The notes: a model not told the origin generated them from the sequence alone. A stretch of DNA of 64,000 nucleotides from Neophaeotheca triangularis (GCA_054600435.1 BAAIJX010000024.1:248001-312000), one strand, 5' to 3'; positions 1,660-47,364 are shown, numbered from the stretch's first letter. Translations and numbers: made by a program.

Positions 1660-2490
1660 CATGTATACTATGGCGAAAGTTTTGACAGAGCTTTTTCGAC
1701 TACTAGAGTTTAAGGCGAATGTTCTTTTTCGACTCGATTTCCGTAAGTGTCTCTTTATACTTCTTAGAAGAGAGATTAATCCCTATACTTATAGTAGGCA
1801 CGACGCTAAACGCCTTCACGTTATCATCGATTATAACCCCTAGCTGCTCGAGGCTCTCGAGAGCTTAACCGAGCGAATTAACATAGCCCGCGTTGTCGTT
1901 CAGTAGGCTATCGACGGCGGAACGGAAATCGGGGGAGTTTAAAGTGCTAATAATTAAGTAGGAGAGGTAGTAGGCGTCACTATGCCTAAGCTAATCGGCG
2001 TAGGATTCAGCTTATCTAAAGACTTAATCGGCATACTTTAACTATACTAAAGCAGCATCTCTAGAAGGGAACTCGGCGGTATTCTCGAGCACCCAAAATA
2101 GTGCCTCGCGGTTAGGGTACGCTAGAAAGCCTAGGGACGGAAAAGCGGCTAGCGAGTAGCGGTCGGACGTAACTAACTAGTAACTTACGGTAGCGATAGT
2201 AACGCTTACGAGGAGGATAAAGAGCGCCTATTTAGATTAAAAGCTATCGCGAGGTTACTATTGCTTAGTAACTCGAGGCTAATAATCGCCGCTTTCGCTG
2301 CTCCTCTTAAGGCCCTACTAAAGCGCGCCTCCTTTCCCTTCCTTTTCTTTAACATAGACATCGAGTAGACTTAGGTCGAAACTCCCGTCTGCGAAGACGT
2401 AGCCTACTACGCGAACACGCTCGTTTAAGTCATCTACTATAGCTTGATTACTACTGCTTTTAGAATTTGAGTTTTAGACCGCTATCGCCG
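1660..2490 (-). pseudogene. RIP'd cargo gene, intact span in copy 1 and truncated in copy 2 at 38719
   Basis: The minus-strand frame runs through the 2245 homology breakpoint in copy 1. Confidence 0.35.
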
Positions 2491-4472
2491 CTATCGCTGC
2501 TATCGTCGCTGTCGTCGCTATCGTAGAGTGTGTAAGTACGTGAACGGAACGGCCTAAGGGGCATCGAGATAGACGGTAACAAGAAGAGATCACTAGTATA
2601 GCACGTAATGTCTATCTTCTAGAACATAAATAGGGCTTTACTCGTATCTTATTACCGAAGCTCTCTTGAAACTAATAGTATGCGGCTATACGCCGTCACT
2701 ACATATAGGTTATATATAGGTCCCCTTAGTTGTCCTTAACTTGCCTAATTAGTCGTGCTACTAGACTTGCCTATAGCTTATCTGCCGAGGGAGGTCGCTT
2801 TTAGTGTTATCGTAGAGGAATTATCTCTTAAGAGACCTATCGATATTACATTATTAAGAGGACCGGTAGTGGCATGGTTATATTCTTAAGATAGCATAAA
2901 AAGATGGCTCGTAGGTAGATCCGTCCTAAGACACTTTTAGCGGAGCTTCTAGCCGACCTATACAAATAGCTATTACTTTGTACTAGAATAAGGTTATCGC
3001 TTTAACCCTATTAACGACTATGTAGTAGAACGCAGAAGCTTAGTAAGAGGATAGGTTGAAAACCTCCGCTAGTAGGAATCGCTAAAGTAGATAACGAGGG
3101 TAGTGCACCCGTCGTAGCCCCCTTTCTATCGTCGACGTAGGCGAGCACTTTTACCTTTAAAAGCTGCCGGTCTCTCCCTAACTACTAGCCAACAAATTAT
3201 TAAAGCTAAACATAGTATAACTCGTATAACGTATTAGGAACGCACTCTTATAGGCCTACGTCGCTATAGTAGTAGTGGGTATCTCCGCCGTAGTACTCGA
3301 CGACGACCCTATCGCTATAGCTAATGTCCGAAGCGTTGTTACGCGGGCCTAACACTAAATCTCGCCGGTTCTCTATACCGTTCTTAACTCCGAAGCGCTA
3401 AAAGTTATATAGACTCGCCTCGAAAACCTCTTCTCTACCGCTTTTACTACGATCTAGATAGAGATGTCGTTTCGCTTTTACTCTAGCCTAGAAGCTTCTA
3501 CCCTTACTATATAGGACTATATAGCTATCGCGCTTTACGTATTAACGCTACTAGCCGCCTATAAGACATACCGGAGCCTATATCGCTTACTCTAGTATCT
3601 CGCGCGGTAAGTGTTTAATTAACTAATTCTCCGAAGTATAGCGCTAATAAAACTTATATCGCTATAGTCCTATAACGGTATCGCTTACAGTATAGGACAT
3701 TAGCGAGGAAGACTACGTAAGCTTCTTAAGGCGGACGTAAGGCCGTATTAGGAAGTATAGTCGTTAAGTGAATAGCGGTTCGGTTAGTTTAGTATAGTTA
3801 GTTAGTTAAGGGGAGGGGGGAGGGGGGAGGCAGGGTAGAAGGGGTAACTAAGGTGTCGATTACTAGACTTTTACCGACCTCGTTATACGTTCTAGGGTTT
3901 CCTATATTCGTCGAGCGAATTAGTACAATATAGTGTTTCGTTTCCTTCTATTAGAACTAGGCTAAATTTCATAGCTTGCTTCTACTTTACTTACTTATAG
4001 ACTTTTCGCTACTACGAGTTTATATAGCTATTACCTCCTAACCCTTTACTACCTGCCTTTTTAACCTCCCTACTTTACTATCCGTCTATTAGGCTCTCCT
4101 CCTACTTAGGGCTTATAGCTATATTATCCGTTCCGAAATAGCGTCTATAGCGCCTAGGCTAAACTAGGGGTTACCTAGTAGGGAAGTCGTTTAATTATAG
4201 TAATATAGTGCGGAAAGGTACTTCTTATAGCCTTTAAGCTCCTTAGACATACGTATACGCTAATTACTATAGCTTAACAACTTTTCCTACTATACTAGAG
4301 TAAGACTTAGCGTATATATATCCCTTCTACCCTCGACTCGGATCCTTAGTCCTTCTCTTCCCTATTACTTTAGTTAGCTTCTAACTCCTAAACTTTATAC
4401 CTAGACTACGCAGACTTCCTATTTCTATCCTAAACCGCTAAAAACCTACTAACAAAACCCTAAACACTCCTA

Positions 4473-4980
4473 ACATAGACGCTAGGCGCCTAACGGCACT
4501 TATGTCCTTTACGGCGGTTAGCGGTATGACTGCTTACCTCTTTACCACTATACTTAACGAAGGCTCCTAGGTCTAGGCTATTACTACTATTACTACCTTT
4601 ATTACCGACCTTAGCACTAGCGGCCTCCCTACTAAGCTCTTCGACTACTGTGTTAAACCTGCCGTTATCGGCCTCTTTATCGTCTTCCGTATCGTTAACC
4701 TCGTTATCGTCGACCTAGTTACCGCCTACCTTATCGACATTGTCGACTTAGCTAACTATCTCTACCTCGAGTTCGCGTACTACTACACTAAGATAATGTA
4801 CGCTTATAGTCCGATCGTCGTCTAGCCCGCTATTCTAACCTTTATCCTCCTCTTCTACTACGCCGTCTACGCCCTTAAAGCATATACTATCTATCTCGCC
4901 GGAATCTTCTCTAAGCTCTACCTCACGTTAAGCGCCGGATTAATCGGTCGTTACACGACTATCGCTAATCGGTAAGCCTA
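4473..4980 (+). pseudogene. Small hydrophobic (membrane) cargo protein; paralog near 40943-41450
   Basis: De-RIP frame MDARRLTALMSFTAVSGMTAYLF...VIGLFVVFRIVNLVIVDLV...AILTFILLFYYAVYAL with several hydrophobic segments. Confidence 0.4.
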
Positions 4981-7900
4981 GTTTCCTACTTCTCGCATCT
5001 TATATCCGGCTAACTATATAATAGTGTTAAAGTCTCCGTCTTCGGCGACCGCGAGTAAGTGACTAAGGGATTAACGGTTAAGTAGACGGTAGATAGGGGA
5101 TTAGGTAGATAGCAGTAAGGCGTGAAGGGGTTAAGAGTTAGAGGAGCTAATAATTTAGAGCCTTTCGGAGCACGTTACGAGTTACATTTTGTTCTTCTAC
5201 ATTATTAGTAAGTATTATCACGACAACGGCAGCTAGGTTTATAGGTTAGGTATTTAGACGTTCGGTATTTTCATTTAGTTATCTAGATAGTCACTTAGTT
5301 TTTAAGGCCTCGTTCGCAAAAGCTTTTCGAGTTATTTGTCACGTGCCCTTAAGTCTACTAAGTCGGCGGGAACCGCTACATATGTAGTAGTTAGCACGCA
5401 TATCACCTCCTACGTAAGTACATACTAGATTTGATATATATACTATATTAACCACTATAGCACCTCCTCGTTCCTTCTTCGATCTACCGATTCGGGACTA
5501 CTCGTACACGAAGGAGGAAGACGGTAAAGATCGAGCGGAGGGCCTTACGAGATAGGCTAACGATTTCGAGTAATAGTAGAGGTAGTAAGAGATAAGGTAT
5601 CGTGTTACGTAGACCTTAAAACTACAAGTACGAGTATAGAACTAAGCTAATGTTAAATATTAGATTAAGAGAGCTTTAAGTAGTAGTAGAGAGGCGGGAG
5701 ACCGTATACCGCGAGGCCTTAACAAGTAGTCGAGAAGAGCTAGAAAGCGTTAAACGCCGTCTTAGTAGGGAACTTATTGCGTTTATATAAGACGAGTAAC
5801 CGAATCGTATAGATGTATAGTATAAAGAATAGAAGCGAAGATTTCTTGCTACTATATATGAAACCGACAAATCTAATTAGAGAGTCACTAAAGGCGAGCG
5901 TACCCCTTAAGCTATAGTAACCTTAAGGGTAGCGTTAAGTATCTACATTCCTATCTTAATTCGTATACGCTATGCTTATTTATACCGGAACTTTTTATCT
6001 AGGGGCTAATCGCGCTATAGGCTAAGCTTACCGGTAATCGCTAATAGTAGCTAGAGCGTAGTCGTAGTTTCTAGCTCCGGCTCGTAGCTTAGGTGCTTTA
6101 AAAGCTACCTAGTACCTACTAGCTTTCGCGTACTAGGTAATGCCTTAAAAGGAAACACCGAACGTGTTAGTTAAACTAGCTAGTAAAGAAGGCCTAACCA
6201 CTACATACTCTTTTAGATCAAAGTATCGGACGCCCCTAACATAAGTCACCGCCTTTAAGCCGACTTAAGTGCCCCTTAGCGTAAACGCAAAGTATCTTTC
6301 GAGACAGATCTTCTTAAGGTCGATGACGGCGAAGTCGAAAGCGCTGTTTAGGACCGTAGCACTTAAGTAGCCGGGGCCGTAAAGCGTACTAAAACCACGC
6401 AATCTATAGACCTATGTACTCCTTATAATACCCGCATCTATAAGTCGAAGCTATCGCGTTCGCACCTTAAGAGCGCTACTAGTATAGAGCGAGTGTTTAA
6501 GGCTATTAGGAAGGGAGCTATCGCGGTCGACAAGCTATAAGAGAGACAAAAAACAATATCATTAATTCTACTAGCCTTTAAGCTAATGCCGAGAAGGAAG
6601 CCGTTTAGCGAGCGACTTGCTTACCTCGAGACTACTACTACGTAATATAGTAAGGTAATCGCCGACCTCTAGAAAAAGGATACTAAAGGCTACTCTAAAC
6701 CTTACGATGGTAAGGACTACGTAGTACTGCGGGGCAAGTTTAGTTAGGATGATCAAATCGATATACTTCTTATAGCTACGGACTCGTAGACTACGGCATT
6801 AGACGAGATTTAGGTGCTCTTTTACCCCTTCTCGAGCCTAGTCTTGTCCTAAGTATCCTACTACGGAAGACGAAGGATCGAAGGCGAAGGAGAGGGGATA
6901 GCTCGGCGCTGTCTATAGTTTTGCATCCTCCCGCTAGTCTATATTGCCGCGCTATAGAGGAGCGGAAAATAGATTATGGGCAAAGTAAAAGCTAAGGGTA
7001 TACGGTATAGTAACGTTATCCTTTAACTCTCCTACTTACTAGCCTCTACCTTACTTTAAAGAATTTACATCGTTTACTAGCCCGTGTATTCTATACACTT
7101 TTTCGCTATGTCTGCCGTAAAAGATTTATAGCCTACTATTACTACCCTCCCTACTATGCCCTTACTATAGTCCTTTAGTAATGCTTCCGGCATAGCGAGT
7201 ATTAGAATATAATGAAGACGAAGTAAGTTTTCATGTTGTAACATTAATACTAGACTGCTAATTCAAGAGTACAAAATAGCTATATAATAAAATCCCCGTA
7301 CAAAAGCCCTTACCTATCTATAGTACCTCCCTAGTAAGGATAATCCCTTACCGGGTCCTAATCTAAGTTCGAGAGGCGCACAATAAAGAACCTAGAAGGT
7401 ACTCTATAAACATTCCATTAATCCTCGCAACATCTCCCCTTCCCCGTTCCCCTACTAACTAGCGCCCTAAAGTGCCTAGACAATCCTTATACCTTCGTTC
7501 ACTACTAGCCCTTCTAAACCTCCGTAGGGAATAGGCTATTTATCTCGATGCGGTCATAGGCACTTATATCGTTAATACCGGACCTATCGACGATCTTCTG
7601 TAGCTAATCTAACTTGAACTAAAGGCTCCTTAGCTTTATGTCGTAGCTATCCTAGCGATACTCGATATAAGCTAGGCGATCGTCGAGTGCCTATAGGCGC
7701 TTAGGATTAAGGGCGGTCTTTTATATGCGCTCGATTATAGCCAAATTACGTTAGAGTTTCTTATAGTCGGCGTCGTCGTCTTTCTTAGAGGAAGCTTACT
7801 TTTGCTTTAATATCATTACTAAGGACGCGGATGTACGACGGGCGGTAGTAGAGGCCTTTAAGACCCTCGGCTTACCTTTAAACTTAGTGCTTAAGCCGGG

Positions 7901-8567
7901 CGATTTTGCACGTAGGCACGATAGACGGCTACTAGCCGAGATGTTATTAGAGGTAAGGTATAAGCTTAGGAGAGGGTCTACGAACTAATCTTCTAACTCT
8001 ATACTAGAGCCGGACATAGCCGTAAGTAAAGGTCGGCGAGTATACGACTATATAGTTAGGAGAGTCGAGCTAGTTAAGGAAGGGTGTTAAAATCACGTGT
8101 AGAGTAAATAGGTCGGTATAGCACGCTTCTACATACAATAAAAGTTGGATTCTGCCTTATAGGTTTGTTTAAAGACGCCTACTTATGACAAGGCGCGTGT
8201 AAGGCAAGCGATGTTTAAAAGCCTTTAAGTAATTATTGCCTTTACAAGCCGCTATTAAAGTTAACGCTTATCAAGAGCCGTTATAAACGAGATGCTAACA
8301 CTAACGGGTACTGCCTAGGCTTTACTAGGGCTATTAGCAGTTTATTAACATCTACGCATTCTCGTAATAATAGCGTATCCGCGCCTTATCTACCTTTATA
8401 GTCCTAATGACTAAGGATATATACTTAACATGTAGGTATCCTATTCGGGTACGGGCTTATAGAGCAGCCTATAGTAGCTCGTTTACCGTAGCGCTATCGA
8501 CTAGTAGACTACGGTAACTTTAATCTTCTCCCCTCTCTTAGCGGTGTATTAGTTGTTATAGGCGACG

Positions 8568-10742
8568 ATAATGTCTCCCTTATCGAAACGACAGCCGCTT
8601 AAAATCCTCGAACTAGTGCTTCTATATAGTAGAGGTGCGCTGTTCGAAGCTAACGTCTTCTCTATACTCCGAAAAAGGCTATATGTCGTCCGGTCGTTTA
8701 AATTCTCCCCTACTAATAGCGCCGTTAACTGCACGAGATAGTACGGCCTCTAAGACGATTACACTATAAGATTTCATCACCTTAATTCCTAGCTTCCCGG
8801 ACAGTAGAGCTAGTACCTCCTCTTCGACGTTAAATCCTCCTTAGATACGCTCGACTATTACCTCGTGACAGAACTAGAGCAAAAGCGTCTAGTTGCGTTC
8901 TACATTACAATGTACGCTTCTAACCCTTCCTTTGTCGACGTGTTCCTAAATCTAGACTAAGACGTACGCGACACGGTAATAAGCAGTACGAAACCTAATA
9001 ACGACTACAGCTCGTAAGAAAAGTAGGAGGGCAAAATGTTAGTAAACGTTCGATAGAAGTTACGGCTACGAGGCGGCACCTTCGGCATACTAGACTAAAG
9101 CTCCGCGCCTTATCGCATACTAATCGCATTACTTCTAGTTGCTATCGAAAACATTAGGCGATACGTGACCTATAGCTAGACGTATATTAACCTATAGACT
9201 AGTGTAATATTTAAGAACTAGAAACCTATCCTCGTAATGTAACCTACGTAGCTAAGGCCTATAGAGTATACGGCATACTTTATAGCCTATAAGTTAGCTA
9301 TTCACATCATGAGGTGCGATTCGTACGCCTATTAACTAAACTTCTACCTAATTAACCTCGTACTACGACTCGCGGACTTTAGTTTCTATAGCCGTCTTAT
9401 CTAGTATAAAGTGGACAACATCCTATAGCTCTCGAGCACGACTTTTAATAACATGCTTATGTCGCGTAAAACAAGGACTAGTACCGTATATCATTACTTT
9501 AACATATTCGAGCTTTTTAACTTCTTTTTCTACGAGTTCGAGATCAAGGCTAAACTACCTCGTAAAGTCTTCTTTTTCATACCCGAGAGCGAGTTCCCTA
9601 ATTCGTTCTACACTAAGACGGTAATACATGACAGTTTCGAGCCGTACCGAAAACGTTTCCTTATCGACCTTAATGACGACCTTAAGTGGATAACAAAAGT
9701 GTAGGACATTATGTAGCGTTACCTATAGGCTCGGAAAGCCGGCTATCGCCCCCTACGGGAGGTAGTAGCTAACCTATTAGTACTACTTTTAGGCGATAGC
9801 GACAATGACAACGACGACGACTACTACGGCCTCGGCAACGGCGATTACGATTCGTTAGTAGCGTATAGGAAGTAGAAAGCAAGTAAATATAAAGTAGGCA
9901 AGTAGGGGGTAGGGAACACGAGTTCTAAAGAGCATACTATACTTATAAGGTTAGCCTTTCGTCGATTCTTCTACAAGGTCATAGATCGATGCGCTTAGCG
10001 AAGGTCGATGCTAGTCGTCGTTTTAGCTCTAAATTATACACTCGGGGACTTTAGTATCTACTGCTATAAGTAGACTCTTAGTAAGTAGTACGACTAGTTC
10101 AAACGAGGCAAGCCTCCGTAGGTCGCTAATACGCTACCGAGTAGTACGCTAATAGTCCCGTTACTTTTCTTTTCACAAGTCTATAAAGCCGGCTTTGTCG
10201 GAGCTAAGCTTAGCGTGCCCTAATTTAGACGTCTAGATACGAGTACCCTTAGAAGATTAGTCCTTTAGGATATCGCTAGCTATAACACTACTACCTATGT
10301 GCCTTTAGTACCCGTAATAGTGCCCTTATAGGACATCTAGCCTACCTAAAGCTAGCGAGAGATCTTCCACGAAAAGACTTCGGCGGAAGGGGAGTAGTCC
10401 CTTATAACTCTAGAAGTCTCCTACTTTCTTAATACCGGTCGCTTCCTATCTAAGTATTCTATTAGATCGGGTCCGCAAAACTACTCTCGCGTAGGTAAGG
10501 ACAAAGTGTAGGGTAAGGTTTAGACTCTTCTCGAGCGTTTTACGGGTCTTTAATCGTTTTAGTATCTACCGGGTCTAGAGCGTAATCCTACGTAATTGCG
10601 CTGTACTTTACAAACAATCTACTAAGCACTTACTAACTAGTAGACTGCCGACCTCGAGTAGGTCTAAACTAGAGCAGATTCCGACCGAGTTAATATAAGC
10701 TATAGAGCATATTTAGTCGATTTGCTTACTAATTTAAACTAA
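8568..10742 (+). pseudogene. RIP-inactivated tyrosine recombinase (DUF3435/captain-like), copy 1
   Basis: Paralog of 45037-47217. Has a 6-bp deletion near 9961 that removes the HG of the FRHG motif. Confidence 0.65.
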
Positions 10743-10867
10743 ACTTTTACCCTATAGCACTTGTTTACTTTAATTCACTTTAAAATCTCTAAACACTAAA
10801 AAAAACCATTTAATGTTAAAATAAACAATATCCTCTAAGGAAAATACTAAAAAAATTGTTATAGGCT

Positions 10868-10915
10868 TAATTGTTCCCATTCCCGGGGACGACACCCTAG
10901 CGCTAGGAACAATTA
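10868..10915. other. attP-like right-end/left-end junction
   Basis: TAATTGTTCCCA (10868-79) pairs with TAGGAACAATTA (10904-15), one RIP-type mismatch. Inner arms CCGGGG and CCCTAG flank a 6-bp spacer ACGACA (10889-94). Confidence 0.8.
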
Positions 10916-11109
10916 CAAGTATATGTATTATAAGACATAAGGGTGGTTAAAGTAGTACTACGTAGTCTAGGCTCTCTAAACTCCCTAAGACATACATTAA
11001 CTACGCTGCAACTTAGAGCGTAGAAAGCGAGCTACGAAATGCCCCGGCCCTCCCTACGAGTAAGTAGTATGAGCCGACGCCGTAGATACACTTAGAAGGT
11101 AAAGGCTTA

Positions 11110-11603
11110 TCTAATCGCGGCTAGAGAATTGCTCGATGTCGTTAGGCAGATCCTCGAGCAGTAGTGCTAAGTTCGTAGACATATTAGTTAGGAGATCTTA
11201 AAAAGTATTATAGAGGTAAGGAGAGACTTTATACCTCGGGCGGCCTTTATGCCTTCGATTGCAGCTTAAAGAGCTTCTAAGATGTCCTGTTGTCTGTCGT
11301 AGCTTCCGCGTTCGATAGCGCGCTCGAGGACGGCGACAGTTTAATTAAGGGTTACTAGTACTATAGTCCTATGCATGTTGCCTACCGCCTCGGCGAGCTC
11401 GGGATCTTCCTCGCTTCCTAAGGCTAGCACGTCGATAGTAGCTTCGATAATAGCGCTAGTTCGAGCGTCGGTAATGTCTAGACTCGGTTAGATGATTCTA
11501 GGCCCGACAAGATAACTAGAACTTACTATTAAAGGCAGCGTAAGGCCTAGCCACCGCGTAATACATAGAGTCGATGTTTAAGCGGATCGAGGGTTTAGCC
11601 ATT
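11110..11603 (-). pseudogene. Small two-intron cargo gene at the element's left end
   Basis: ATG GCT AAA CCC near 11603. GTAAGT/CTAAC/AG intron signals. Helical acidic product (EEDPELAEAVGNMH). Confidence 0.4.
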
Positions 11604-11967
11604 TTTAACGGTTCGAGCTAAACGTTAAATTGCTAGTAGTAGAACAGCGCCTAAGGCCCTATAACTACGACACGTCGGTAAGTACCTAATTGCATGGTTT
11701 TATCGTGTTAAAATCGGGTACTGCTAGCATGTTTAGCTCTAGACTACACCCTGCTAATGCTATTAATTATCCCTAAGGCATAACCTAGAAGGTTTACTAA
11801 GTACGGTCCCTTATTAATGTAGTAAAGGCCGCACCTACGTACAAGTCTAGCATTATGCGCATTCTAAACGGGCATTTCCCTTGTCTTCCTTATGATCGGA
11901 GTAACGCGCTAGACTAAATGAAGTAGGGCAGGTAACGTAGGGCTAAGCCTCCGGCGCGAGCCGCGCC

Positions 11968-12122
11968 TATTATAATATGTAGCGGCACGAACTCGATTAA
12001 TTGATTTCAAAGGACTAAACTAGGTACTTTATAGCAAAGCCTATAAAGACAGGTTGCAGCTTCTATAGCTTCTACCTTAGGCATACGATGTTACGTACTA
12101 TACTGTATAGCTTATTACAACA
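11968..12122 (-). repeat. Copia 3' LTR
   Basis: Matches 26097-26251 and is preceded by the PPT on the minus strand. Confidence 0.95.
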
Positions 12123-12309
12123 CTCTCCCTACTGTTAAGTAACACGTGAATGCCCTTTTTAGTAGTGACTATGTGAATTTACTACGTTTTACGGTAATTG
12201 CCGCTAACACGCCCTACTATATATTATCACGTAGAAGCTACTAGTGACAGGAAGGTATTACTATCACTTTTAGAAAGCTCCTAAAAGAACACAGCACTAT
12301 AAAAAGGCC

Positions 12310-13570
12310 TACTCCCCCTACTATAGTTCTTTAACCCTTCCTACTACTATAACTAATAAGTAGTCTCTTTACTAGTTGCCTTAATACTAATAGCTATACC
12401 TTCTACTAATACTAATAGCCCTTTTACTAATACTAGCTAACAATACTAATAACACTTTAGCTTTAGTACCTTTAGTACTAATAGCAGCTTTAGTATAGCT
12501 ACCGTTAACTAAAGCACGATAGGTAGTATAGGTAGCTCTAGTAGTAGTAAGAAGCTACTAACTAGTACTCCCTCTACTTATACTATATACGACCTAAACT
12601 AGCTAGCTACTTTAAGTAAGTTACTATAGGCTAGCCGTAAGAATTTCGCTAATATGTAGATAGTCCTTAACTATATCTAGCTAGACTTAGCTACTTTATG
12701 TAGAATCCGCCGGGTCGCTATTAACCTTAGGCCGGACAACGTTAAGCAAATGCTACTATAATTCCGTAACAATAAAGCCTAGTAGTTCTACGCCTCTAAT
12801 AAGTCCCTAGCCCTAAAGAATAAGCTAGAAATAAGGGTAGCTAGCAAGAAATTCAACCTGTCTTCTACTAAGAATACTAATTACCTCCCTACTACTATAA
12901 CCTAAGCTATTAAGGGAGGCAAAATTCATAAAGGGGATGTAGCTTACACTAGATGTAAGAAGGGTAACGGCCCTTAGAAGAATTATGTTACCTTAGAACA
13001 TAAAGGAAAGAAGTTTATAAAGGGAGCCTATAGTAACTATAGCTATAGTAACTACTTTGACCGATATGACTTCTCTTATAAGTATTACTAATACAGGCTA
13101 ATTTCCGCGGGAATTCTTCGCTAATATGTAGGTAGCCTATTAACTAGTCCTACGAACAAAGTCTTCGTAGGAAACTCTAGTATCTTTACTAAGAAGGATA
13201 GGGTTAATAGCTAGCTCTCCCGCTCCCCTAACGACTAGTAGATATGCTAAAGTGCTAATCCCTAATAGCATTAATTAGAGCACACTAGCTAGGGCTACTA
13301 CATTTACTTAGGCCTTAAGGTAAAGGGTAGATGTCTATAGTAGTAGGTCTACCCTTAATAGGGGAATAGGTCTTAGATCTATACTGTCTACTATAAGAGC
13401 TAGGTCTAGTAGAGAAAGTACCTTTTAGGGCTTCCTAACTTCTATAGGAAGTTCTTCTAGTTCTAGTAGTTCTTCCTCCTCTTTAAGCCTCTTAGTAAGG
13501 AAGGATAGTAAGAAGGATAGTAGCTCTAAGGATAGTAGCTAGGGTAGTTCTAAGGATAGCTAGAAAAAGT
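12310..13570 (+). pseudogene. Extra antisense ORF in the Copia element, DUF3716-like Cys-rich domain
   Basis: De-RIP translation of 12930-13075: VACTRCKKGNGPWKNCVTLEH.GKKFMKGAC.NCSY....RCDF, followed by an acidic/Ser-rich tail. Confidence 0.65.
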
Positions 13571-15687
13571 AAAATAAAGGAAAAGGGTAGTAGTGTCCTA
13601 TAAGGGTATTGTTTCTTAGGAGATAGTTCCCTAGAGTTTTAGTGTTTTCTAGGTTTTCTTAAGTTTTGTTTCTTAGGTTAGTATAAAGGAAAATGCTGCA
13701 TTATATAGTAGGTTTCTCCTAGGATAGTTTTCCGGAGTTAGTGTTTTCTTAGGATAGAGTTTAGAAACAAAGGGAATACTACATCCTATAAGGGTATAAT
13801 ACTCTCTAAGTAGGATGATCTTAAATCATCTAGTTAGGGGACTTTAGCTTAGTTAGACTATCTGCTAGCTACTTAGTAGTATTAATATATTTAACACTAA
13901 TAACCCCCTTCTTAAGCTATTCCCTATAGTAATAGTTTCTAAGGGAGGTGTGTTTTAATCGCTTTAAGTTAGTATAGTCTTCTATAAGTAGGATAGCTAA
14001 CTTGTTGTTAATATAAACCTTAATAGTTTTTAAGCTAAATTCTATTAAGGGCTAAAGTTTAAGGAAAAGATTCTACATCTAGTTAATTTCCCTTATAGTT
14101 TCTATTAATATAACATACTCTACCTTAGTGCTTAATAGGATAACTTCCTTCTATCTCTAAGATCTCTAGACTATAGGTGCACTATTTATGAAAATGGCTA
14201 AGCTAGATGTTAATCTAGATGTAGCTAGATCACCTATAAAATCTAAGTCTAAGTAGGCCTTAATAGAAATTCCTTCCTATCTCTTATAGATAAGCCCTCT
14301 ATCTGTAGTACCTATAACATATCTCTAGATGTGTGTTATAGCTATAATATGCTCCTCTAATAGGTTTTAAAGGAACTTTACTAAGTAGTTAACTATATAA
14401 GAAATGTCTAGCCTTATCTAGTTTGCTAGGAATTGTAGTTCCCTAATCATCTTATTAAAGATGTAATAAACCTACTAAGTGTATTACTTCTTAGAAGGTT
14501 TATATAAGCGGTTAAGTAGGTACTTAACTATCCTTGCTTAGTCTAGATTATGCCCTTTAAGTTTGTTAAGGGCATAATGCTTCTAGGATAGCTTAATAGT
14601 ATTCCTACTCTCCTTAATATATAGGCCTAGGAAAAGGTTAGTATCTACCTCCTTAATGCTATACTTCTTCTTTATCTCTACGATAAGCTACTTAATCTTC
14701 TTAGGTTTAGGGCTAAAGATCTAGAAGTTATCTATATGTATTAAAACTAGTATATTATTATTAGTAAAAAGATATGCATTAGACTTTGTCTGCTTTAGTC
14801 CTATTAACTTAAGATAGGATGTAGTATCTTAAAACTAGAGGTAAGCTACCTACTTAAGACTATATAAGCCCTTGTTAATCTTTATAAGCTTGCCCTTCTT
14901 ATCTTTAAGAATAAGTTTAAGTCCTCCTAGTGCCTAGATAAAGATCTGTCTATCTAGATTAGGATTTAAGAATACTATCTCTATATTAATCTAAGTTCTA
15001 CTCTATTTAAGCTAGAATGTAATAGCTAGGAGGATCCTTCCTGTTCCTAGTCTTAGTGTTAGTGTAAAGGTGTTAATATAGTTAATACCTTGTTTCTATA
15101 AGAATCCCCTTACTATCTATCTAGCCTTATACTTATTAATAGAGCTATCTAGGAGAAGCTTTAGCTTAAACACCTACTTCCCTATAAGTGCTCTTCTACT
15201 AGGTAGTAGCTCTAATTACTTAATCTAGGTAATTATGCTAGTAGATTTAAGGCTTTTAATCTCCTTAATTATTATAGCCTTCTACTAGCTTATATCCTTT
15301 CTACTAAATGCATCGTAATAGTCCTTAGGATTATTAGTAGCCTAGGTTATAGCTCCTATATATAACTACCTATAATTCTACGATTTTATAGGCCTACCTA
15401 CCCTTATATATATTAAGGTGTTACGACCGCGGTGCTAGCGGGACATCGGCGGCCTAAGCTGCGGAGTAGCTCGGGAGTACTAAGCGTACACACTACGAAA
15501 GTATATGAGATAGCTAACAGTAAAGTCTCCTGTCTACTATCGAATAGTTTCTATATCAAAGGACTATTACTATTATTACCATTATTACGCTCCGCCCTCG
15601 CTCCGCCGTAATCCCGACCGAGTCATAGTCTCGGTCTTATAATTCTATTCGATCTTAGAACCTTTTCAGGTTAAGATTCGCTCGGAC

Positions 15688-18600
15688 ATTATAGTACTAT
15701 CGCGCTCGCTACGCCCTCGGGTTAACGACGCTAACCTAGCGGACTCCCCTAACACTATAACCGGAGTCAACACCCCGTAAGAATAAGAAGAGGCGGCGAC
15801 GGACTAATATACGGTCCTTACTACCGCTATTACGGAACTCTAACAGCAATTAGTAGAGCGTATAGCGCCTATTTAGCGAGCCGCCGATAGAGCGACGGTC
15901 CCCCGCGACGAGTCCGAAAGAGGATATATCGAACTAGAGGACCCGGCGGACATTGCCCCTACCCTAGTAGCACGTAAGTAGACGGTAGACGAAGATCTAC
16001 CTACCGGCGTAACGATAAAGGAGCGAAAGGCTTACATCGATATCGAGAAAGCTTTTCGCTCGGCCGAACTAACGGTTTATAGGAGTTATCCTAATCTCTA
16101 AAAAGCATAGACGTTTATCTAGCAATACGAGCATATGTTTAAGACGTACCCTTATGTTTACTTTTATTAGTACGAGCATATCTAGTATGCCGTAGGCCGT
16201 CTATACGGCCGCGTCGGCTAGAACTAGGAGAGTAAAGAATCACGACTCGAACGCGAAGAGATGAAATGGCCTATGTTTAAAGAATAGCTACTAGATTAGA
16301 TCCTCGACCCCGAAAACTATGCTATAAATATAGCGTTTCGAGGTTTTAGACACGTTTAGGGAGCGACCTAATCTATTCACGACTACCTCTTATATATCGA
16401 AGACTCCCTCCGCGAGGCCGACGTCGCCCCGCTACTAGAGCATACGCTCCTTACCCTCGTCAAGACAGGTCTACGGGAAAATCTTAAGGCTAAGCTAAAC
16501 GCCTAGCTAACGGTGCTAGACAATAGGCATAACCTCGTCGCGCTTTACACGCGCCTCGACGAGGCTAGCCGTAGTAGCTAGGATACTAGAGGCAAGACGG
16601 CGGACAAGCCACGTAAGACCGACTTAAGAGGTTTTAGCTATAGGAAAAGAGAACAAAACTAGAGCATAAGCGACAATAACTCTAAACCGCGCTGCTAGCG
16701 TACCGATAGAATACCGGCGACCGGCATGAACCGCACGGGTACGACTAATAGTGGCGAACGAAACAACAAAGCCCTCGAAGAAAACCTTTGTTTTAAGTGT
16801 AGTAACAAAGGCTACTAGTAAGAAAATTGCCGAAAGGGAAAAGCTTAGCCCTAGGCCATTTAATTGTTAGCCTTAAAGGCTTAGGGCGGCAAGTAGGTAG
16901 TACGTTAATAGAGCGCCTATAGGCTGTCGTAAAGACATGCGATTATACCCGTAACGGGCTACGCTTCGAGGCCTATAGGCTTATCGATATAGGAGCGTAT
17001 TACAATGTCATCTCGGAAGACATCGCGGTCTAGTATAACCTGCCGATAAAGGGTGACCGGATTCATAGGCTACGAGCCTTCGGCGACGTCGAAGCCCTAA
17101 TAGTAGGCTAATGTTAACTCTATACTGAAGTCGCTAATTTAGACGGTATAGTTTAGACTATCCCGTAGATGTTCGAAGTAGTAAACTAGAAGGATTACGA
17201 AATGATTCTTAGAATGCCTTAGATCCGATCCGTAAAAGTATAGCTCGATTTCGCGTCGCCGCTAGTATAGTGGCGCTATAGCGGTGTGTACGATAAAGAA
17301 GAAGTCGAAATTATCGAGGCCGAAGAACTAGCCCGAGATATTAATAGTAGAGCATCTATCCTCGCCGTTAGCGTAGAAGACCTACGCGGGACCCTAGCGG
17401 AGCCGCGGGTGCCTAAGTAGTTAGTAGAGTACGCCGAGGTGTTTAAATTAGAGAAGGCGAAAGAGTTACCTCTATATACGCTTCATGACCACTATATCGA
17501 ACTAGTCGAGGGAAAAAACCCTCCTAGTAGACCGATCTACCTATGTTCTAAGCTAGAGCTCGAAGAAATGTAGTCGTAGATTAATAACCTGCTCGCAACG
17601 GACTGTATTAAGCCTAGTACTAGCCCTGCTAGCGTACCGTTACTATTCGTTAAGAAGAAAAACGGCAAACTTCGCATGTATGTCGATTACCGCGGCTTGA
17701 ACGAAATCACTATTAAAAACAAGCGTCCTTTACCGCTTATCGGTGAACTCTTAGATAGAGTCCGCGGATTAACGTGGTTTTCGAAAATCGATTTAGTTAA
17801 GGCATACTACCGTTTACGTATCGCCCGGGGCGACGAGTAGAAGACGGCGTTCCGCTATTAGTACGGCTATTTCTAATACAAGGTCATGCCTTTTAGACTC
17901 GCTAATGTACCGGCGTCGTTCTAGGCCTTTATTAATAAGGTGCTTATAGAGCTAGTTAATCACTACTACGTGGTATATATAGATAATGTTCTTATCTACT
18001 CCTGTACCGAATTAGAACACTGCGAACACGTTCGAGCGGTCTGCCGTTAGCTCGCCGACGCTAAGCTGTATACTAGCCTCGAGAAATGCGAGTTCATGGT
18101 CCGAGAGATTAGATTCCTTAGTTTTATTATTAAATCTACTAGAGTAGCGATAGAGCCCCTACGGGTAGCTATAGTACAAGATTAGCTAATGCTAAAGTCC
18201 TTAAAAGAACTCTAAGTGTTCCTAGGATTCGCGAATTTCTATCGTCGCTTCATCGAGGGATATATAAAGATTACCGCTCCCCTTATAGACCGCCTACGGC
18301 ATAGCGGCAGTGAATAGTAGCCACTAGGTAAAGATGCCTAAAAATCCTTTAAAAGGTTAAAGCACAGCTTCATTTCGGCACTAGTGCTACGGCACTTTAA
18401 CGCTACGCTAGAGACCCGCCTTAAGACCGATACATTAGGATATATATTAGGAGGCATACTCGCGTAGAAGCACTTAGACACGCTATAGCATCCGGTCGCA
18501 TATTACTCTAAGAAGCTTAAAGGGCTAGAGTTACGATATCTAGTGCACGATTAGGAACTACTCGCTATCGTCGAGGCGACACGCTAATAGTAGCACTATA

Positions 18601-20760
18601 TATTGTCGGCTAAGAGCAAAGTTTAGGTGCTTATAGATCATAACAATCTAAAGTACTTCCTATCGATAAAGAAATTGTCGGGCCGCTAAGCGCGCGCTAT
18701 AGAAGAGCTATCGTAATACGACATCGAAATCATATACCGTGAAGGTAAATTAAACCCTAGAGTAGACGGGCTCTCGCGCCGTCCTAATATAGAGGCCGAT
18801 AGAGAATTGAGTAGGGCGGAGATACTACCTATACTAACTAGGCTTTTCGCTCCCCTAGCGGGCTACTATAAGGCCGCCGAAGTTCCGGCGAGTAGCCGTA
18901 AGACGGCCGCTAAAGATAGAGTAGAGATCCTATCTATGTCGCTAGGGTACGTAGCGCTAGTAAACCGCCGGGCGTTAGCCGCCTCGCTAGTAGGCTACAT
19001 AATAGCTACTAGAGATACCGGTCCTCTAAACAATAAGCTTTAGAGTAATGATACCGTGTACACTAAGCGAACGCTCTAAGGGGGAGGTAAACTAAACCTG
19101 ACTAGCTCCGTCGCTATAGTAGCGCTAACCTATTATGACCCCGTAGGTAAGTAGCTAGGTATACTCGCTATCACCGAATTAGACATTAGAGAGCCTAACA
19201 TGGCGGTAGACCGAATTGACCTTAGAGCGGATATGTTACGCGCATAGTAGGGAGACCCCTTTACTAAACGCATTCGTAAAGAGATCGACGAGGGATAGTA
19301 CCGTAGAGACGCTAATAGCGCCGCGCCTACGTGGTCGGTTAGTTTTACAGGACTTCTTAAGATTAATGGAAAGGTGTATATGCCGCTAGTAGAAAGCCTA
19401 CGGGCCGCCGTACTAAGCTACTACTACGAGGACCTATTAGTAGGATACCTAGGAGTAGGGAAGACTAAAGCCGTCTTCTACAAGGAGTTTTAGTGGTCTA
19501 AGTAGACTAAGGATGTCGAAGAGTATGTCCTTAGGTGTAATACCTACTAAAGACATAAGTCGCGCCGCTACCGGCCCTATAGCGCACTATAATCGCTAAG
19601 GGTTCTAGGTACTAATGAGATCTTTAAGCATTAGTCTATAGACATAGTGGTTAAGTTGCCTGTTGTAGAGACATATAAGGGCGAAACAGTCGATTCTGTG
19701 TTAGTTATTGTTAACCGCTTCTTAAAGTTCGCGAGGTATATCCCTATTAGCGAAGCGATAGGGGCCTACTAGCTAGCCGATATTTTCGAGCACGAAATTC
19801 TTACTAAGTTCGGTAAGCCAAAATCGATTATAACTAATAGAGGCAGTATATTCACCTCCGCGTTTTAGACAGAGCTCCTTTAGTATTAGAAAACCGAGCG
19901 CAAGTTATCGACGGCGTACTACCCTTAGTCTAACGGGTAGACGGAGAGGCAAAACCAAACAATAGAATAGTATCTACGATGCTTTGTTAACTTTGCATAA
20001 ACAGATTAGCCTTATTACCTCATATAGGCTAAATTCGCCCATAATAATAGCATAAGCGCATCGACTAAAGTGTCGCCGTTCTTTACCGTCTACGGGGCGG
20101 AGCCCTAACGGCCTAGCGGCGTTACGGATAACGCTGTCGGAGAGGGAGGCAGCGAACCGATAATCCCTAACCTCTAAGAAAGAACCGAAAACTAGAAAGC
20201 AATTCGCGAGGTCGTCGAGGAGAACATTCGGCACGCTGTTAGCAAGTAGGCGGAATACTACAACCGAAAACACGATCCTATAGTATTTAGTGTCGACGAC
20301 GAGGTTCTTATTTCCGCGAAAAACCTAAAAACGTTAAGACTAACTAAAAAGTACTCCTCGCGTTATGTAGGGCCCTTTCGAGTCATAGTAAGGGTCGGAA
20401 AACAAGCATACCGATTAGCCCTACCTCTATACCTTAGAAAGATCTATAACGTCTTCTATATCTCCCTCCTCGAACCGTACTACTAACGCGCCGACTTTGC
20501 ACCGCTAGCGGAGCGAGAAGTCGACGGAGGCGGCGAATAGGTTGTCGACGAAATAACGGCATCCGGTCTAGACGACGATGGCGACAAGATGTACTAGGTT
20601 CTTTAGAAAGATTAGCTAATAGAAGAGGGTACCTAGGAGAAAGAGAAGCATCTAAACAACGCGAAAGAAGCGATAGTAGACTTCGAGTAACACTAGTAGA
20701 CCTACGGCGGCGCGAAAAAGAAGCGTAGAAAGAAAACATAAAGCCCGAAAAAGAAGAAAA
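15688..20760 (+). pseudogene. Gypsy gag and pol with C-terminal chromodomain
   Basis: Conserved motifs are readable through RIP stops. Confidence 0.92.
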
Positions 20761-20879
20761 CTATAGGAAAAGGACGTAGTACACAAGCTTCTTAAGTAAT
20801 AGCTACTACGGATAGGCTAGCGATAGGATAACGGCGCTTATAGAGAGTACGCAAATGATTAGACAAACGCTTAAGCCCT

Positions 20880-22210
20880 AGTGTCTAACTCCTTCGCAAC
20901 ATTAGTAATATTAGCCTATAGCTAATCTTCGGCACTAATAGACTTCTCCGCATTCTCTCCTACTAACGGAGCGGCGTCGTCCCTACGGCGCATCCTAAGG
21001 AAGCCTAAGATACTAGAAGGCTTCTTCGGAGCCTTATCCTCCTTATCCAACTCCGACGAAGAAGAGCTTTCCCTAGAAGATACCTCTAGCGGCGTACCGG
21101 CGTCGCCCCTACTACTCTTCTAAACTAGACCCTTAGTCTCTACTACTAGTACCTTAGGAGCTACTACTAGCGCCGGCGTACTAACGGTCTTATCGTAAGG
21201 CGGCGACTTACTAAGACTAGGAGTCTCGCGTAGCGGCAAAGAAGAAGACGCGGCGTAACGGCAGCTAGACATCTCGCCGATAAGTACGGACATTTCCGTA
21301 TAGTAGACGGCGACAAGTCTCTCGATAGTATCGGTGACGATCGTAGCGAAGTCGCGAGTTTAATCCGTGATTAGGCGTGCTATATCGTGCGGAGTTAAGA
21401 TCTTATCGTTATTAGGACCGGAACGACGAAGGCCCCCTATCGGGATAACGGCGCGGTTATTCTTATAAAAGTACTAAGAGACCTTAGCGTCGACTTCTAA
21501 GACCTTAAGGTATATCGGCGAATCGGCGTCGGAACTACTAGTACGGTTAGCGCGATAGAGTATAGCGGTATGGTTTATCTAGACACGGTAGGCGCGCTAG
21601 CTAGCGAGGTTAGGAATGATCTAAAGAGACATTAGTAAAGCTCGTAACGACGACGGAGCTACGGCGGGCTTACCTCGATACACGATTGCTTCGCGTTAAA
21701 GTAGGTGTTATATACCGATCTAGTCGCGGAAGGCACTATCTTACATAGCGGGACGAAGTCGACGGACCTAGCGAGAACGTTGCTTAAGAGCTCCTTAATA
21801 TAGCGCGAACAACGAGGGCGATTAATATCGATAGGAGTAAGCTCCTTACCCTTATCGATGTCGGCGAAGCGACGGAACGCCGGCGTACCCTTATTAGACC
21901 TACTCTCTTCACTATTATTACCCTTAGTATGCTTACGTTTCGAGCCCGTACCCTTAACGGCCGTAGCGCGCTTCGTACTAATACCCTCCGACTTCAAACC
22001 CTTCTTAGTAGACTTCGACTCGTTAACTAGATCCTTTAACTCCTCCTCTATAAAGCTACTAGCGGCGATCTAACGACGGCCCTTAGTTATAAAGACTCCC
22101 TTAGCGACAATCGCGCTATCTATAGTAAAGGCACCCTTACTATTAACGGCTATAGCGCTAACGCTATAGTCGACTAGCGCCTTTAGACGCTTACTAACAC
22201 GTAGAGGCAT
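20880..22210 (-). pseudogene. Extra antisense ORF in the Gypsy element with a Cys6-like motif
   Basis: ATG at 22210. ORF-track peptide RCSR(C)IKELL...LCK.VPSATRSV(C)NT(C)FNAKQSCIE, followed by an intron-like segment (GTAAGC...CTAAT...TAG). Confidence 0.55.
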
Positions 22211-23259
22211 AATGGAATAGTAGCGGAGCAATAAAGGCAGTAAATAAAAGCTGGCGAAAAAGGGCGATAGCGAGATCGCGAAAAAAGTGGTCGATGAAGA
22301 AGGAAAGAAGGTATTAGAGGTACGAGGAGCGCCTTTTTGTTAAACCGCGCTAGGTAAGGTTTTCGAAAGGTTACCGGAAGTAGGTAATAATAGGAAACTA
22401 GGTAAGGTTAGTTTCATTGTCGAAGAACAATAGGAACTGTATATAGACCGATAGTGGCGCGTATACAAAGAACTAAAGTTCACTTACCGACAAAGAAGGT
22501 CACCTTATTAAAAGGCAAACCGGCACGCCGAAGGGACTACGACGGAGTAGAGGCTATTATTATTATTATGGTTAAAAGGAGGAAGTCTTTAAAAGAGAAG
22601 CGGCCGGCAGGTTACCTCCGCGTAATTATAGCGTAATCACGCTAAGGCTCCGCTAGCAATTACTACTCCGCTAAATCACCGCCACGTGGCCGTTAATACC
22701 GCTTATCGCGACGATAACGCACCTTGCCGTAGCGAACTTAGGTTTAGGGTAAATTCACTCTAGGGACCCGACGGTACGACGGCGGTACGCGGTATCACTC
22801 TTTTCCTTAGTAAAGACACTGCCGAGGTTTTTAACGAGGATGCTAACATACGCGCTATGACGGATCTCGTATAACTATGCTTATAGGTGCTAGCTCGAGG
22901 ACGAGCTACCGGAGAGGGAGGCAATTGTTATAACCGCGGCGCTAGCGGGACATTAGCGGCCTAAGCTACGGAGCAGCTCGGGAGTACTAAGTATATATAC
23001 TACGAAAGTATATGAGATAGCTAATAGTGAAGTCTCCTGTCTACTATTAAATAGTTTCTATATTAAAGGACTGTTACTATTATTACTATTATTACGCTCC
23101 GCCCTCGCTCCGCCGTGATCCCGACCGAGTCATAGTCTCGGTCTTATATAAGGGCTAGGGGGATAGTAATCTCTTCCTCTTACTAGTAGTTAGCTAAGGG
23201 AAGAATAGTGTTATTAGGGTGTCTCCCTAATCTTCCTCTATTAGGTTAACTAAGGGCTA

Positions 23260-23570
23260 CTATTACTCTCCCTAGTATATAGGGGAGACTTCTTAGTACT
23301 CTCCCTATTCTATAGGAGAGGCTTCTTATTATTACTCTCCCTATTCTATAGGAGAGGCTTAGTGTTACTACTCTCCCTTAGGAGAGGCTTATTAGTAATC
23401 TCCCTTAGGAGAAGATTAGTGCTCTCCCTACTCTTTAGGGGAGACTTACTAGTATTAGTACTCTCCCTTAGGAGAGGCTTGTTAATATTAGTGCTCTCCC
23501 TTAGGAGAGGCTTGTTATTATTAGTACTCTCCCTTAGGAGAGGCTTATTATTGTTACTACTCCTATTATA
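23260..23570. repeat. Degenerate tandem repeat (core CTCTCCCTTAGGAGAGGCTT) in the Copia IN-RT linker
   Basis: About nine imperfect units of 24-36 bp. Confidence 0.8.
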
Positions 23571-26096: not shown

Positions 26097-26251
26097 TATT
26101 GTAATATATAGCGGCACGAACTCGATTAATTGATTTTAAAGGACTAAACTAGGTGCTTTACAGTAAAGCCTATAAAGACAGGTTGCAGCTTCTATAGCTT
26201 CTACCTTAGGCATGCGATGTCACGTGCTGTACTGTACAGCTCATTACAATA
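26097..26251 (-). repeat. Copia 5' LTR
   Basis: Matches 11968-12122 and is followed by the PBS. Confidence 0.95.
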
Positions 26252-26359
26252 GCGCTAAGAGTAGATAGAGACTTTATGTCTATAGGTAGTTCGAGTCTTA
26301 AGGCAAATACGAGGGTATAGGTGACTACCGACTAACTCAAACAGAAAATGCCTCGTAAA

Positions 26360-27991: not shown

Positions 27992-29299
27992 GTTATACGG
28001 ATTAAACAAGACGTCTAGACTTTAGCCGGAGAGTATATTAACTACGAAGGAAGAAGTTAGGGTGTTTAAATATTATTAGCAGAAACGGGCTCTAGCAAAA
28101 CACCTAGCGAATAACATATCTCACTAGGATACTCCCGGACCCTTCTATAAACGTACCGGGGATACTAGAGGAATAGAAGCTGTATATCGGTCGGGCTACT
28201 AGGGTCTAGAAATGCTTTAGTAATGTAGAGAGCCCTAGGACCTTCTACTATAAGGCTTACTAGTGCCGCGTAGGCATTACTAGAAGATTGAAACTACGGT
28301 AGGCTTTGTCTAATAGCTCTTATTTATTTGCGATATGAGTCTTAGGCTACTACACTTGTTTTGCACTCTAGTGTAAGCGGCAATCTAGGCGCCTTAGTAT
28401 AGAAACCACTATAGCCCTTTAGTCTTTAACGTAGAAGTCGCTCTTTTTCTAAGGTATCTATCGCTCTATAAGGGGACGTTTTCAGACGCAACAGGACGCT
28501 ACTATAGTAGAGTGTAGGATTTAGAGGATGCTTCGAGGCCTATACTCTACTATAACCGTAAACGGCAGACGGCGAGAAGTACGGCTCGCTATAAGAGGTA
28601 AGTTTAGGAGCTAGATCTATAAGTTGCTAATCTAACGAGGGATAGGGTACGAGTTCTCCCTATCCGACTTTACTCTAATCGTACTGTCGTCGGACTCTAC
28701 GGATATGCTACCCGAAAGTATCGCCGAGTTTAAGCTCATCTTATAGTAGACGAAGAAACCCGCTTAGCGCTACGTATGCTTCTTACATGTCGATAGGAAA
28801 ATGTGCCGGCTAAGCTAAGCTTAGCTAGTCGGCAGCTACGACGGTAAGGTAGCGCGAAGGACGCCCTACATCTAGGCAAAGGGAGGTAATAGGGAAGGGC
28901 GGACGATATAGGTAGACGGAAGTATACAATCTAACTACGAGGTCGTTATAGTTGTCGTAGAAGGGCTCCTAGAGCAAATAGCGCTAGTGCCTATAGTAGT
29001 ATGGCTAGAGAAGGCGAACACTTCTTATAGGCTAGAACCGGTAACCGCTCGGGCGCTATACTAGATGCCACCTTTCCTAGTCGACACTAGTAGTATGTAA
29101 AGCATATTAACTAACCTAATTACGGCGACTCTTGCTCCCGGTTCTTATTACTAGAATCCTATGACGGGCGTGCGATTCGATAGATAGCAGCCTCGACTTA
29201 TAAGCTTACCTGACCTCCGTTCGGTAACTACGAGTAAGCGAGGGTAGACGTTAGACGTAGTGGTTTTCAAATTTTTCGAAGAAGTTAAGAGTATCCCTA

Positions 29300-47217: not shown

Positions 47218-47323
47218 ACTTTTACCCTATAGTACTTGTTTACTTTAATTCACTTTAAAATCTCTAAACACTAAAAAAAACTATTCAATGTCAAAATAAA
47301 CAATATCCTCTAAGGAAAATACT

Positions 47324-47330: not shown

Positions 47331-47364
47331 TTGTTATAGGCTTAATTTTTCCCATTCCCGGGGA

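Follow-up and report, generated by a model that had tools for sequence, protein, structure and literature searches.

Probable joint of a dead mobile element at a tRNA gene end in the genome of Neophaeotheca triangularis

Described elements with short direct repeats and inverted arms

In filamentous fungi, the known insertion targets of giant elements with cargo are 5S rDNA, AT-rich DNA and loosely defined motifs. In the Starships among them, the captain, a DUF3435 tyrosine recombinase, is encoded at the 5′ end, usually within 2 kb of the boundary and at most ~7 kb from it, and auxiliary genes of the DUF3723, FRE, PLP and NLR types are often present. In att-site systems, inverted recombinase-binding arms flank an overlap of 6–8 bp that is identical in element and target, and the integrative elements and prophages of bacteria and archaea integrate in this manner, by attP × attB recombination, at the 3′ ends of tRNA genes.

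In the parts of the literature covered here, Starships are bounded by short direct repeats of 2–6 bp, occasionally have terminal inverted repeats, and include members that target a small multicopy RNA gene, the 5S rDNA (PMC11162782). Tangerine combines direct repeats of 4–5 bp with inverted repeats of 10–12 bp that are set in from the ends (10.1101/2025.11.25.690456). For Hephaestus, a circle junction consisting of the 3′ end, TTAC and the 5′ end was detected in reads, and a synthetic circle also integrates (10.64898/2026.09.21.753150). In the Dada superfamily of DDE transposons, the transposase is longer than 1000 aa and contains zinc fingers (CCCC and CCHC), the sub-terminal inverted repeats keep a constant spacing to a 6–7-bp duplication, and tandems with one duplication are formed (PMC3706591). 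Integration at tRNA genes is mentioned as a bacterial analogy (PMC9156397), and within the literature covered no Starship or Pezizomycotina DNA element is reported at a tRNA 3′ end.

The locus that we compare with these systems lies in a stretch of 64,000 nt from N. triangularis (GCA_054600435.1, BAAIJX010000024.1:248001-312000; here called the window, with positions counted from its first letter). An initial annotation had described the palindrome at 10868-10915 as the junction of an excised circle, formed by a tyrosine recombinase and preserved between two copies of an element. The features on which our analysis draws are collected in Table 1.

Table 1. Coordinates of the features in the window; element parts are named according to the preferred reading.
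Feature	Position	Strand	Basis or remark
Copy 1 of the 8.65-kb repeat, right-hand part of a putative upstream element copy	2245..10893	+	homology begins abruptly at 2244/2245
Right sub-terminal inverted-repeat arm, copy 1	10868..10879	+	TAATTGTTCCCA
Inner arm CCGGGG, right end of copy 1	10883..10888	+	sequence
ACGAC, short direct repeat (crossover core or target duplication)	10889..10893	+	common to the copy-copy and tRNA junctions
Putative whole copy 2, 36,475 bp	10894..47368	+	inverted arms 10895-10915 and 47343-47363; RIP indices high throughout
Inner arm CCCTAG, left end of copy 2	10895..10900	+	differs from CCCCGG by one C>T and one G>A
Left sub-terminal inverted-repeat arm, copy 2	10904..10915	+	TAGGAACAATTA
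Left arm as RIP-tolerant pattern			CCCYRG, 3 nt, TRGGAACAATTA
Nested copia-like element	11965..26251	-	158-bp direct repeats 11965-12122 and 26094-26251; RVT_2 E = 1.3e-22
Gypsy-like LTR retrotransposon, inside the copia-like element	15419..23148	+	223-bp LTRs, target duplication TAAGG
RIP-inactivated protein-gene remnant, uncharacterised family (cargo or host gene)	32292..32900	+	phmmer
Solo LTR of the gypsy family	36251..36474	- (inverted)	in copy 2; missing in the second genomic version
Copy 2 of the 8.65-kb repeat	38719..47368	+	self-blastn and recoded comparison
First 7-T run on the tRNA strand	47324..47330	-	35 nt past the tRNA 3′ end, inside the element end
Right sub-terminal inverted-repeat arm, copy 2	47343..47354	+	one G>T relative to copy 1
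ACGAC at the tRNA junction	47364..47368	+	1 trailer nt and last 4 nt of the tRNA gene
Intact tRNA gene, Arg-like, anticodon-loop CCU	47365..47443	-	Rfam RF00005, 51.8 bits, model 1-71 of 71

The palindromic joint and the end of the tRNA gene

Read directly from the sequence, the outer inverted repeat consists of a first arm, TAATTGTTCCCA, and a second arm, TAGGAACAATTA, the latter being the reverse complement of the former at 11 of 12 positions with G>A as the sole mismatch. The inner arms, CCGGGG and CCCTAG, are complementary save for one C>T and one G>A and enclose the spacer ACGACA (10889-10894); arms, spacer and the 11/12 complementarity all agree to the letter with what the initial annotation had reported. 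The layout is symmetric, running from a 12-nt arm through 9 nt, ACGAC and 9–10 nt to the other 12-nt arm, and the inverted repeat extends to the bases that directly adjoin ACGAC. When the arms are compared over 21 nt, 15 positions are identical, four differ by RIP-type transitions and two are other mismatches. The 12-nt motif TRRRAACAATTA, searched with transitions tolerated at three positions, has exact matches in the window only at 10868(-) and 10904(+), and allowing one mismatch adds a match at 47343(-), which is the corresponding arm of copy 2.

On its own the palindrome is ordinary, and the unusual part is its position on a repeat boundary. Within the 64-kb window, 11 loci have a 12-nt inverted repeat with no more than one mismatch and a loop of up to 30 nt; the RIP-tolerant 21-nt criterion gives three loci in the window, with 0–6 matches (mean 1.45) in 20 block shuffles; and as a single strand the palindrome folds weakly (-8.1 kcal/mol, z = -1.84, with 10 of 200 shuffles at least as stable). 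The centre of the palindrome lies within 2 nt of the end of an 8.65-kb direct repeat (10893/10894), and we estimate the chance of a palindrome centred on this boundary at <1%, or at <~3% if all four repeat boundaries are allowed. Two other small palindromes were seen elsewhere: the one at 28502-28555 has a RIP-tolerant match of 20/21, and the one at 51987-52040, which lies in the host part, has perfect 12-nt arms around a loop of 30 nt. A search of metagenomes with the 21-nt right end returned one match, which lies in an apparently coding stretch of a GC-rich contig from sediment (L001), has no tRNA in its vicinity and is taken here as chance.

The right end of the repeat is encountered a second time at a tRNA gene. 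When the right ends of the two copies are aligned, they are identical through ...CCCATTCCCGGGGACGAC (10893/47368) and diverge after it: past the shared ACGAC, copy 1 continues into A-CCCTAGCGC-TAGGAACAATTA and copy 2 into the 3′ half of the tRNA gene. The tRNA-side junction (47364-47369) reads ACGACC and thus matches five bases of the spacer ACGACA, as had been pointed out before; the shared core is 5 nt long, and the sixth base is A at the copy-copy joint and C at the tRNA joint. This tRNA-Arg(CCU)-like gene, which ARAGORN delimits at 47362-47444, is the sole Rfam match in the window at the gathering score; it has a 9-nt insert in the anticodon loop, and its 3′ end faces the element. Because the match to the tRNA model is complete and the repeat ends 4 nt inside the gene, ACGAC comprises one trailer nucleotide followed by the last four nucleotides of the tRNA gene. 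The chance that a random boundary falls within 5 nt of the tRNA 3′ end is ~10 in 64,000 (~1 in 6,000). The 7-T run listed in Table 1 would be a candidate Pol III terminator. We ruled out that the tRNA gene is itself a part of the element, as no tRNA follows copy 1, and we rejected an LTR primer-binding site or a two-LTR circle junction, for which neither TG...CA ends nor a complement of the tRNA 3′ end are present.

These positions bear directly on an origin that involves no mobility, in which a plain tandem or segmental duplication, or a rearrangement that broke at a pre-existing palindrome and was joined through 5 nt of microhomology, placed the 8.65-kb segment beside the tRNA gene, after which RIP degraded the duplicated DNA; the inverted repeat would then be either chance or the cause of the break. 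The 5-nt ACGAC is the residue that microhomology-mediated joining is expected to leave, similar palindromes number 3–11 per 64 kb (0–6 in shuffles) and the stability of the hairpin is unremarkable. Also in keeping with such an origin, no terminal feature was found at the left limit of the 8.65-kb repeat (2244/38718), and our searches of the region recovered no mobility gene and at least one remnant of an ordinary protein-coding gene. However, two coincidences are needed, one placing the palindrome on the boundary and the other placing the boundary at the tRNA 3′ end, at the estimates given above, and the arms are symmetric about the same 5–6 nt that are common to the tRNA junction. We therefore regard a non-mobile duplication or rearrangement as unlikely. 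Because the palindrome centre coincides with the repeat end, and because the same end lies 4 nt inside the only tRNA gene, we consider it fairly probable that 10868-10915 is a joint left by some type of target-specific mobile element. The joint had also been said to define both ends of the element; the right end is seen twice in the window and the left end at this joint only.

Duplication, RIP mutation and a second genomic version

In self-blastn, 2245-10893 and 38719-47368 form a direct repeat with 93.3% identity over 8,656 bp and a start-to-start spacing of 36,475 bp, and a comparison of purine/pyrimidine-recoded sequence, which is insensitive to RIP, returned the same limits. Over 8,644 aligned sites there are 565 differences between the copies; transitions account for 554 of these, 540 of them at CpA or CpG. 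Because the differences are dominated by transitions at CpA and CpG, we conclude that the copies are real and separately mutated rather than an assembly duplicate. RIP-type changes at CpG (242) nearly match those at CpA (298), and the mutated base is in copy 1 more often than in copy 2 (353 vs 201).

Base composition follows the same right-hand limit. From position 1 to ~47368 the window is AT-rich (30–48% G+C), with TpA/ApT of ~2.0–2.1 and (CpA+TpG)/(ApC+GpT) of 0.29–0.51; from ~48000 onward it has 49–57% G+C, and over 48000-64000 the two indices are 0.77 and 1.17. Across 47368/47369 they change abruptly from 2.15/0.34 to 0.72/1.04. Because RIP requires duplicated DNA, all of 10894-47368 was once duplicated.

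The extent to which this duplication is preserved in the window is limited. Positions 1-2244 have no match to the rest of the window, 36476-38718 included, in either self-blastn or the recoded comparison, and because of this lack of a match to 36476-38718 a full tandem requires an extra insertion or rearrangement in copy 1, which must be interrupted, rearranged or cut short. What stands there in place of the sequence predicted by a simple tandem model is RIP-mutated sequence, in which no Pfam family was found in six frames. The 8.65-kb repeat was rejected as a self-contained transposon in its own right: it has neither inverted nor direct repeats at its termini, is not flanked by a duplication and lacks a Helitron-type 3′ end. 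The palindrome does lie at the boundary of a repeat, as a junction between two copies would, and the copies can be traced over 8,656 bp and not over the full spacing of 36.5 kb.

Information on sequence outside the window came from contigs of three public runs, which we placed on 34001-54000 at 85% likeness. One run (X1) contains the stretch and is probably from the source strain; the other two (X2 and X3) carry the same organism label, and the stretch was not detected in them. In X1, the host flank has a depth of 122.5 and the summed depth over 34001-47340 is ~200–370, save for the bin of the solo LTR at 2,868. The raised depth includes 34001-38718, a region that has no partner in the window, and at 34536-34865 two versions are present, with 0 and 34 differences in 330 nt and depths of 128.7 and 155.3. 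Because there are two versions of 34001-38718 in X1, the sequence to the left of the 8.65-kb repeat has a second, similarly diverged copy outside the window. At 38803-39421, the divergent version shows 61 differences in 619 nt and is exactly copy 1. Read most simply, copy 1 would extend further upstream, beyond an insertion or rearrangement that interrupts it at 2244. One X1 contig joins 36245 to 36474, skipping 228 nt (36246-36473) so that the solo LTR is missing; because the other genomic version is without this LTR, its insertion is later than the duplication. X1 also contains 63% of the sampled words of 10400-11400. In X2 and X3, contigs cover neither the element nor the host flank 47369-54000, beyond a 59-nt and a 44-nt piece in X2, and the 59-nt piece (47379-47437) comes from a tRNA paralogue whose flanks differ. 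The host flank left uncovered in these two runs may be strain-specific, or the organism label may span diverged lineages.

The read contigs also speak to the proposal that degraded transposons without relation to each other form a mosaic at the junction, or that the assembly is wrong there, such that the 8.65-kb repeat and the sequence from 10894 onward would be different, abutting families or a misjoin. The region is indeed a nest of copia-like, gypsy-like and solo-LTR sequences, its LTR family reaches ~23x single-copy depth, and the joint is seen in assembled sequence. Yet both versions of the 8.65-kb repeat are separate X1 contigs at single-copy depth, the sequence to the right of 10894 is low in copy number (~2 copies where measured), and neither a target duplication nor termini of separate elements are present at 2245/10893. 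A mosaic or misjoin would moreover leave the inverted symmetry across the joint unexplained, and we hold it to be very unlikely.

Returning to the element reading, the putative copy 2 comprises ~22 kb once the nested LTR-element sequence is subtracted from 10894-47368, and the 27.8 kb between the 8.65-kb copies contains sequences that were inserted later. Copy 2 is interrupted, 1,071 nt from the left end, by a copia-like element; the 158-bp repeats of this element are 92% alike, its RVT_2 domain lies at ~14540-15200, and it is itself split by the insertion of the gypsy-like element. In the latter, RVT_1 (3.8e-27), RT_RNaseH and Integrase_H2C2 are detectable despite RIP. The gypsy-like LTRs are 91.5% alike, and the depth of their family in X1 is that given above. 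Just past the gypsy 3′ LTR, at 23261-23562, lies an imperfect array of ~33-nt repeats with CTCTCCCTTAGGAGAGGCTT-like units, each of which is a small palindrome.

Coding content, relationships and a proposed origin

We scanned six-frame translations against Pfam with RIP-made stops read as X and E <= 0.01–0.1. No family at all was found in the six frames of 2245-10893, 10894-11964 and 26252-38718. Specifically, these scans of the non-LTR sequence (~22 kb) gave no DUF3435, Phage_integrase or any other recombinase or transposase domain, no Starship auxiliary gene (DUF3723, FRE, PLP, NLR) and no zinc-finger, exonuclease or DDE-like domain. As positive controls, the RIP-mutated gypsy and copia domains were recovered by the same procedure with E = 1e-22 to 1e-27. 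Because these nested-element controls worked, a conserved domain of 300–400 aa under a similar RIP load is expected to be detectable, and a captain gene within ~2 kb of an end should have shown up; severe RIP or introns could still hide a captain. Word-based protein searches with the read-through of 27700-30300(-) and 27901-30399(+) gave no match at E <= 0.001 among proteins of 0.55–1.75x the query length, no long coding frame stood out in maps of stop-codon density, and no open frame of at least 120 aa appeared when the RIP differences between the 8.65-kb copies were partly removed.

How, then, does the locus relate to the described systems? With Starships (Hephaestus, Tangerine and the 5S-rDNA-targeting Voyager, Enterprise and Arwing, all of the Pezizomycotina) it shares large size, low copy number and cargo, here a span of 36,475 bp, two versions at single-copy depth where measured and one gene remnant, as well as inverted repeats of 10–12 bp set in from the ends, here 12-nt arms that agree at 11/12 positions; ACGAC, present at the copy-copy and tRNA joints, would correspond to the short direct repeats of Starships that match the target. 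Starships likewise use a small multicopy RNA gene as target, occur in tandem insertions and in hosts that show RIP, and pass through a circular intermediate in which the joined ends flank the direct repeat. The locus differs from them in that neither captain nor auxiliary genes were detected in the six-frame Pfam scans, in that the target is a tRNA 3′ end with the gene left intact whereas Starship insertions in 5S are internal and likely disrupt the 5S rRNA, and in that ~22 kb without the nested elements is at or below the small end of the Starship size range. Integrative elements and prophages of bacteria and archaea would be alike in integrating at tRNA 3′ ends, in keeping the tRNA through a shared crossover sequence and in retaining an attP-type junction between the copies of tandem arrays; unlike them, the locus is eukaryotic and nuclear, the shared block is 5 nt, and no integrase gene (Phage_integrase or DUF3435) was found beside the junction. 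Cryptons are fungal DNA transposons with a tyrosine recombinase and a proposed circle intermediate; they are, however, a few kb long and without terminal inverted repeats, no recombinase was found here, and no Crypton is known to target tRNA genes.

The comparison with Dada elements bears on another alternative for the joint, namely that a target-specific DDE transposon of the Dada kind inserted twice at the same tRNA-end target. By analogy, ACGAC would be a target duplication of 5–6 bp, the arms would be the ends bound by the transposase, and the tandem would share one duplication. Dada elements target tRNA and snRNA genes, have short (6–7-bp) duplications flanked by equidistant sub-terminal inverted repeats, form tandems with a single duplication and are known in a fungus, Laccaria (PMC3706591); here, too, the inverted repeat reaches the bases adjoining ACGAC. 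Moreover, because Dada transposases match no other transposases in blast (PMC3706591), a blank Pfam result may be compatible with a Dada element. On the other hand, Dada elements are 4.7–11 kb long and insert inside the RNA gene, whereas the element here would be ~22 kb or more, is present in ~2 copies and takes in only the last 4 nt of a tRNA gene that stays intact. The repeat is 5 nt, or 6 nt with a mismatch, the six-frame Pfam scans gave no zinc-finger, exonuclease or DDE-like domain, and whatever relatives our searches recovered for parts of the element come from one small uncharacterised family. We consider a Dada-like origin quite unlikely. In sum of the family comparisons, Starship membership fails on the captain, which is its defining test, and Dada membership fails on size and insertion point; from its sequence, the element appears to be of a known kind, site-specific with a short repeat and inverted arms, and of a family assignable to neither Starship nor Dada.

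Our preferred reading is that the locus is probably a dead element that targeted the end of a tRNA gene, with a head-to-tail joint, and we propose the following sequence of events for it. A large low-copy element of ~22 kb (36.5 kb with the later LTR insertions) would have integrated where the tRNA-Arg(CCU)-like gene has its 3′ end. Both ends of the element would carry an inverted repeat of ~21 nt made up of the 12-nt outer and the 6-nt inner arm, and ACGAC, overlapping the last 4 nt of the tRNA, would be present once between the elements and once between copy 2 and the tRNA. A Starship-like tyrosine recombinase may have acted on a circular form, in which the joined ends (arm, ACGAC, arm) would recombine with ACGAC at the tRNA end. 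A second integration beside the resident copy, or the integration of a dimer, would then have fixed the circle junction in the chromosome, and the resulting duplication would have exposed both copies to RIP and led to their inactivation. In this scheme, we infer a full-length copy 1, a true left end at 10894, the circle and the class of the enzyme.

The proposal of an excised-circle junction, made in the initial annotation, gains from the palindrome on the boundary, from the recurrence of the same end with ACGAC at the tRNA, from the second version of 34001-38718 and from an anatomy that fits the Hephaestus circle; it does not gain from the scans, which gave no recombinase domain, or from 1-2244, which does not match 36476-38718. 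Arms placed around a spacer are what was expected of a tyrosine-recombinase site, but this layout is not specific, as the tandems of the DDE element Dada are alike (PMC3706591). By analogy, a joint of the tyrosine-recombinase (circle) type, Starship-like, is a tentative assignment that we put somewhat below an even chance. The most comprehensive version, in which giant elements of fungi include a lineage, either Starship-like or of a class not yet described, that targets tRNA 3′ ends, keeps the tRNA intact by sharing its last nucleotides and left a circle-junction fossil between tandem copies killed by RIP, is possible but rather doubtful.

If true, giant fungal elements would occupy a new niche at tRNA 3′ ends, with the tRNA kept intact, in which they would closely resemble bacterial genomic islands. 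The end-to-end joint fixed in the chromosome would, in that case, give both element ends and the crossover core without experiment, and the locus would illustrate how tandem integration triggers RIP and yields an AT-rich block bounded by a tRNA gene. Because the element is dead, is known from one genome and has no identifiable enzyme, its value is that of a structural lead. As such a lead, from one dead locus in one genome, it is a good one: the observation is confirmed and the interpretation is partly supported.

The one part of the putative element for which our searches recovered protein relatives is the gene remnant to the right of the copia-like insertion. In a phmmer search of 32292-35891(+) against 1.84 billion representatives, 83 proteins matched at E <= 0.001; the best had an E value of 1.9e-24 and 37% identity, and all best stretches lay in query residues 1-254. 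The N-terminal part continues upstream in a different frame at ~32,000-32,200, as judged by eye, and this change of frame between the N-terminal and the C-terminal part points to an intron or an indel. As far as this similarity goes, the putative element had one real gene or more as cargo or host sequence, the family of which is uncharacterised. Eleven of the 12 family members scanned were without a Pfam family and the twelfth had only an FHA domain, and the structural neighbours of one relative in the ESM Atlas were of low confidence (TM <= 0.34). Members of the family are mostly 150–400 residues long and have a conserved core of the form ...YLKCNALINPP...TPLYAIQ....
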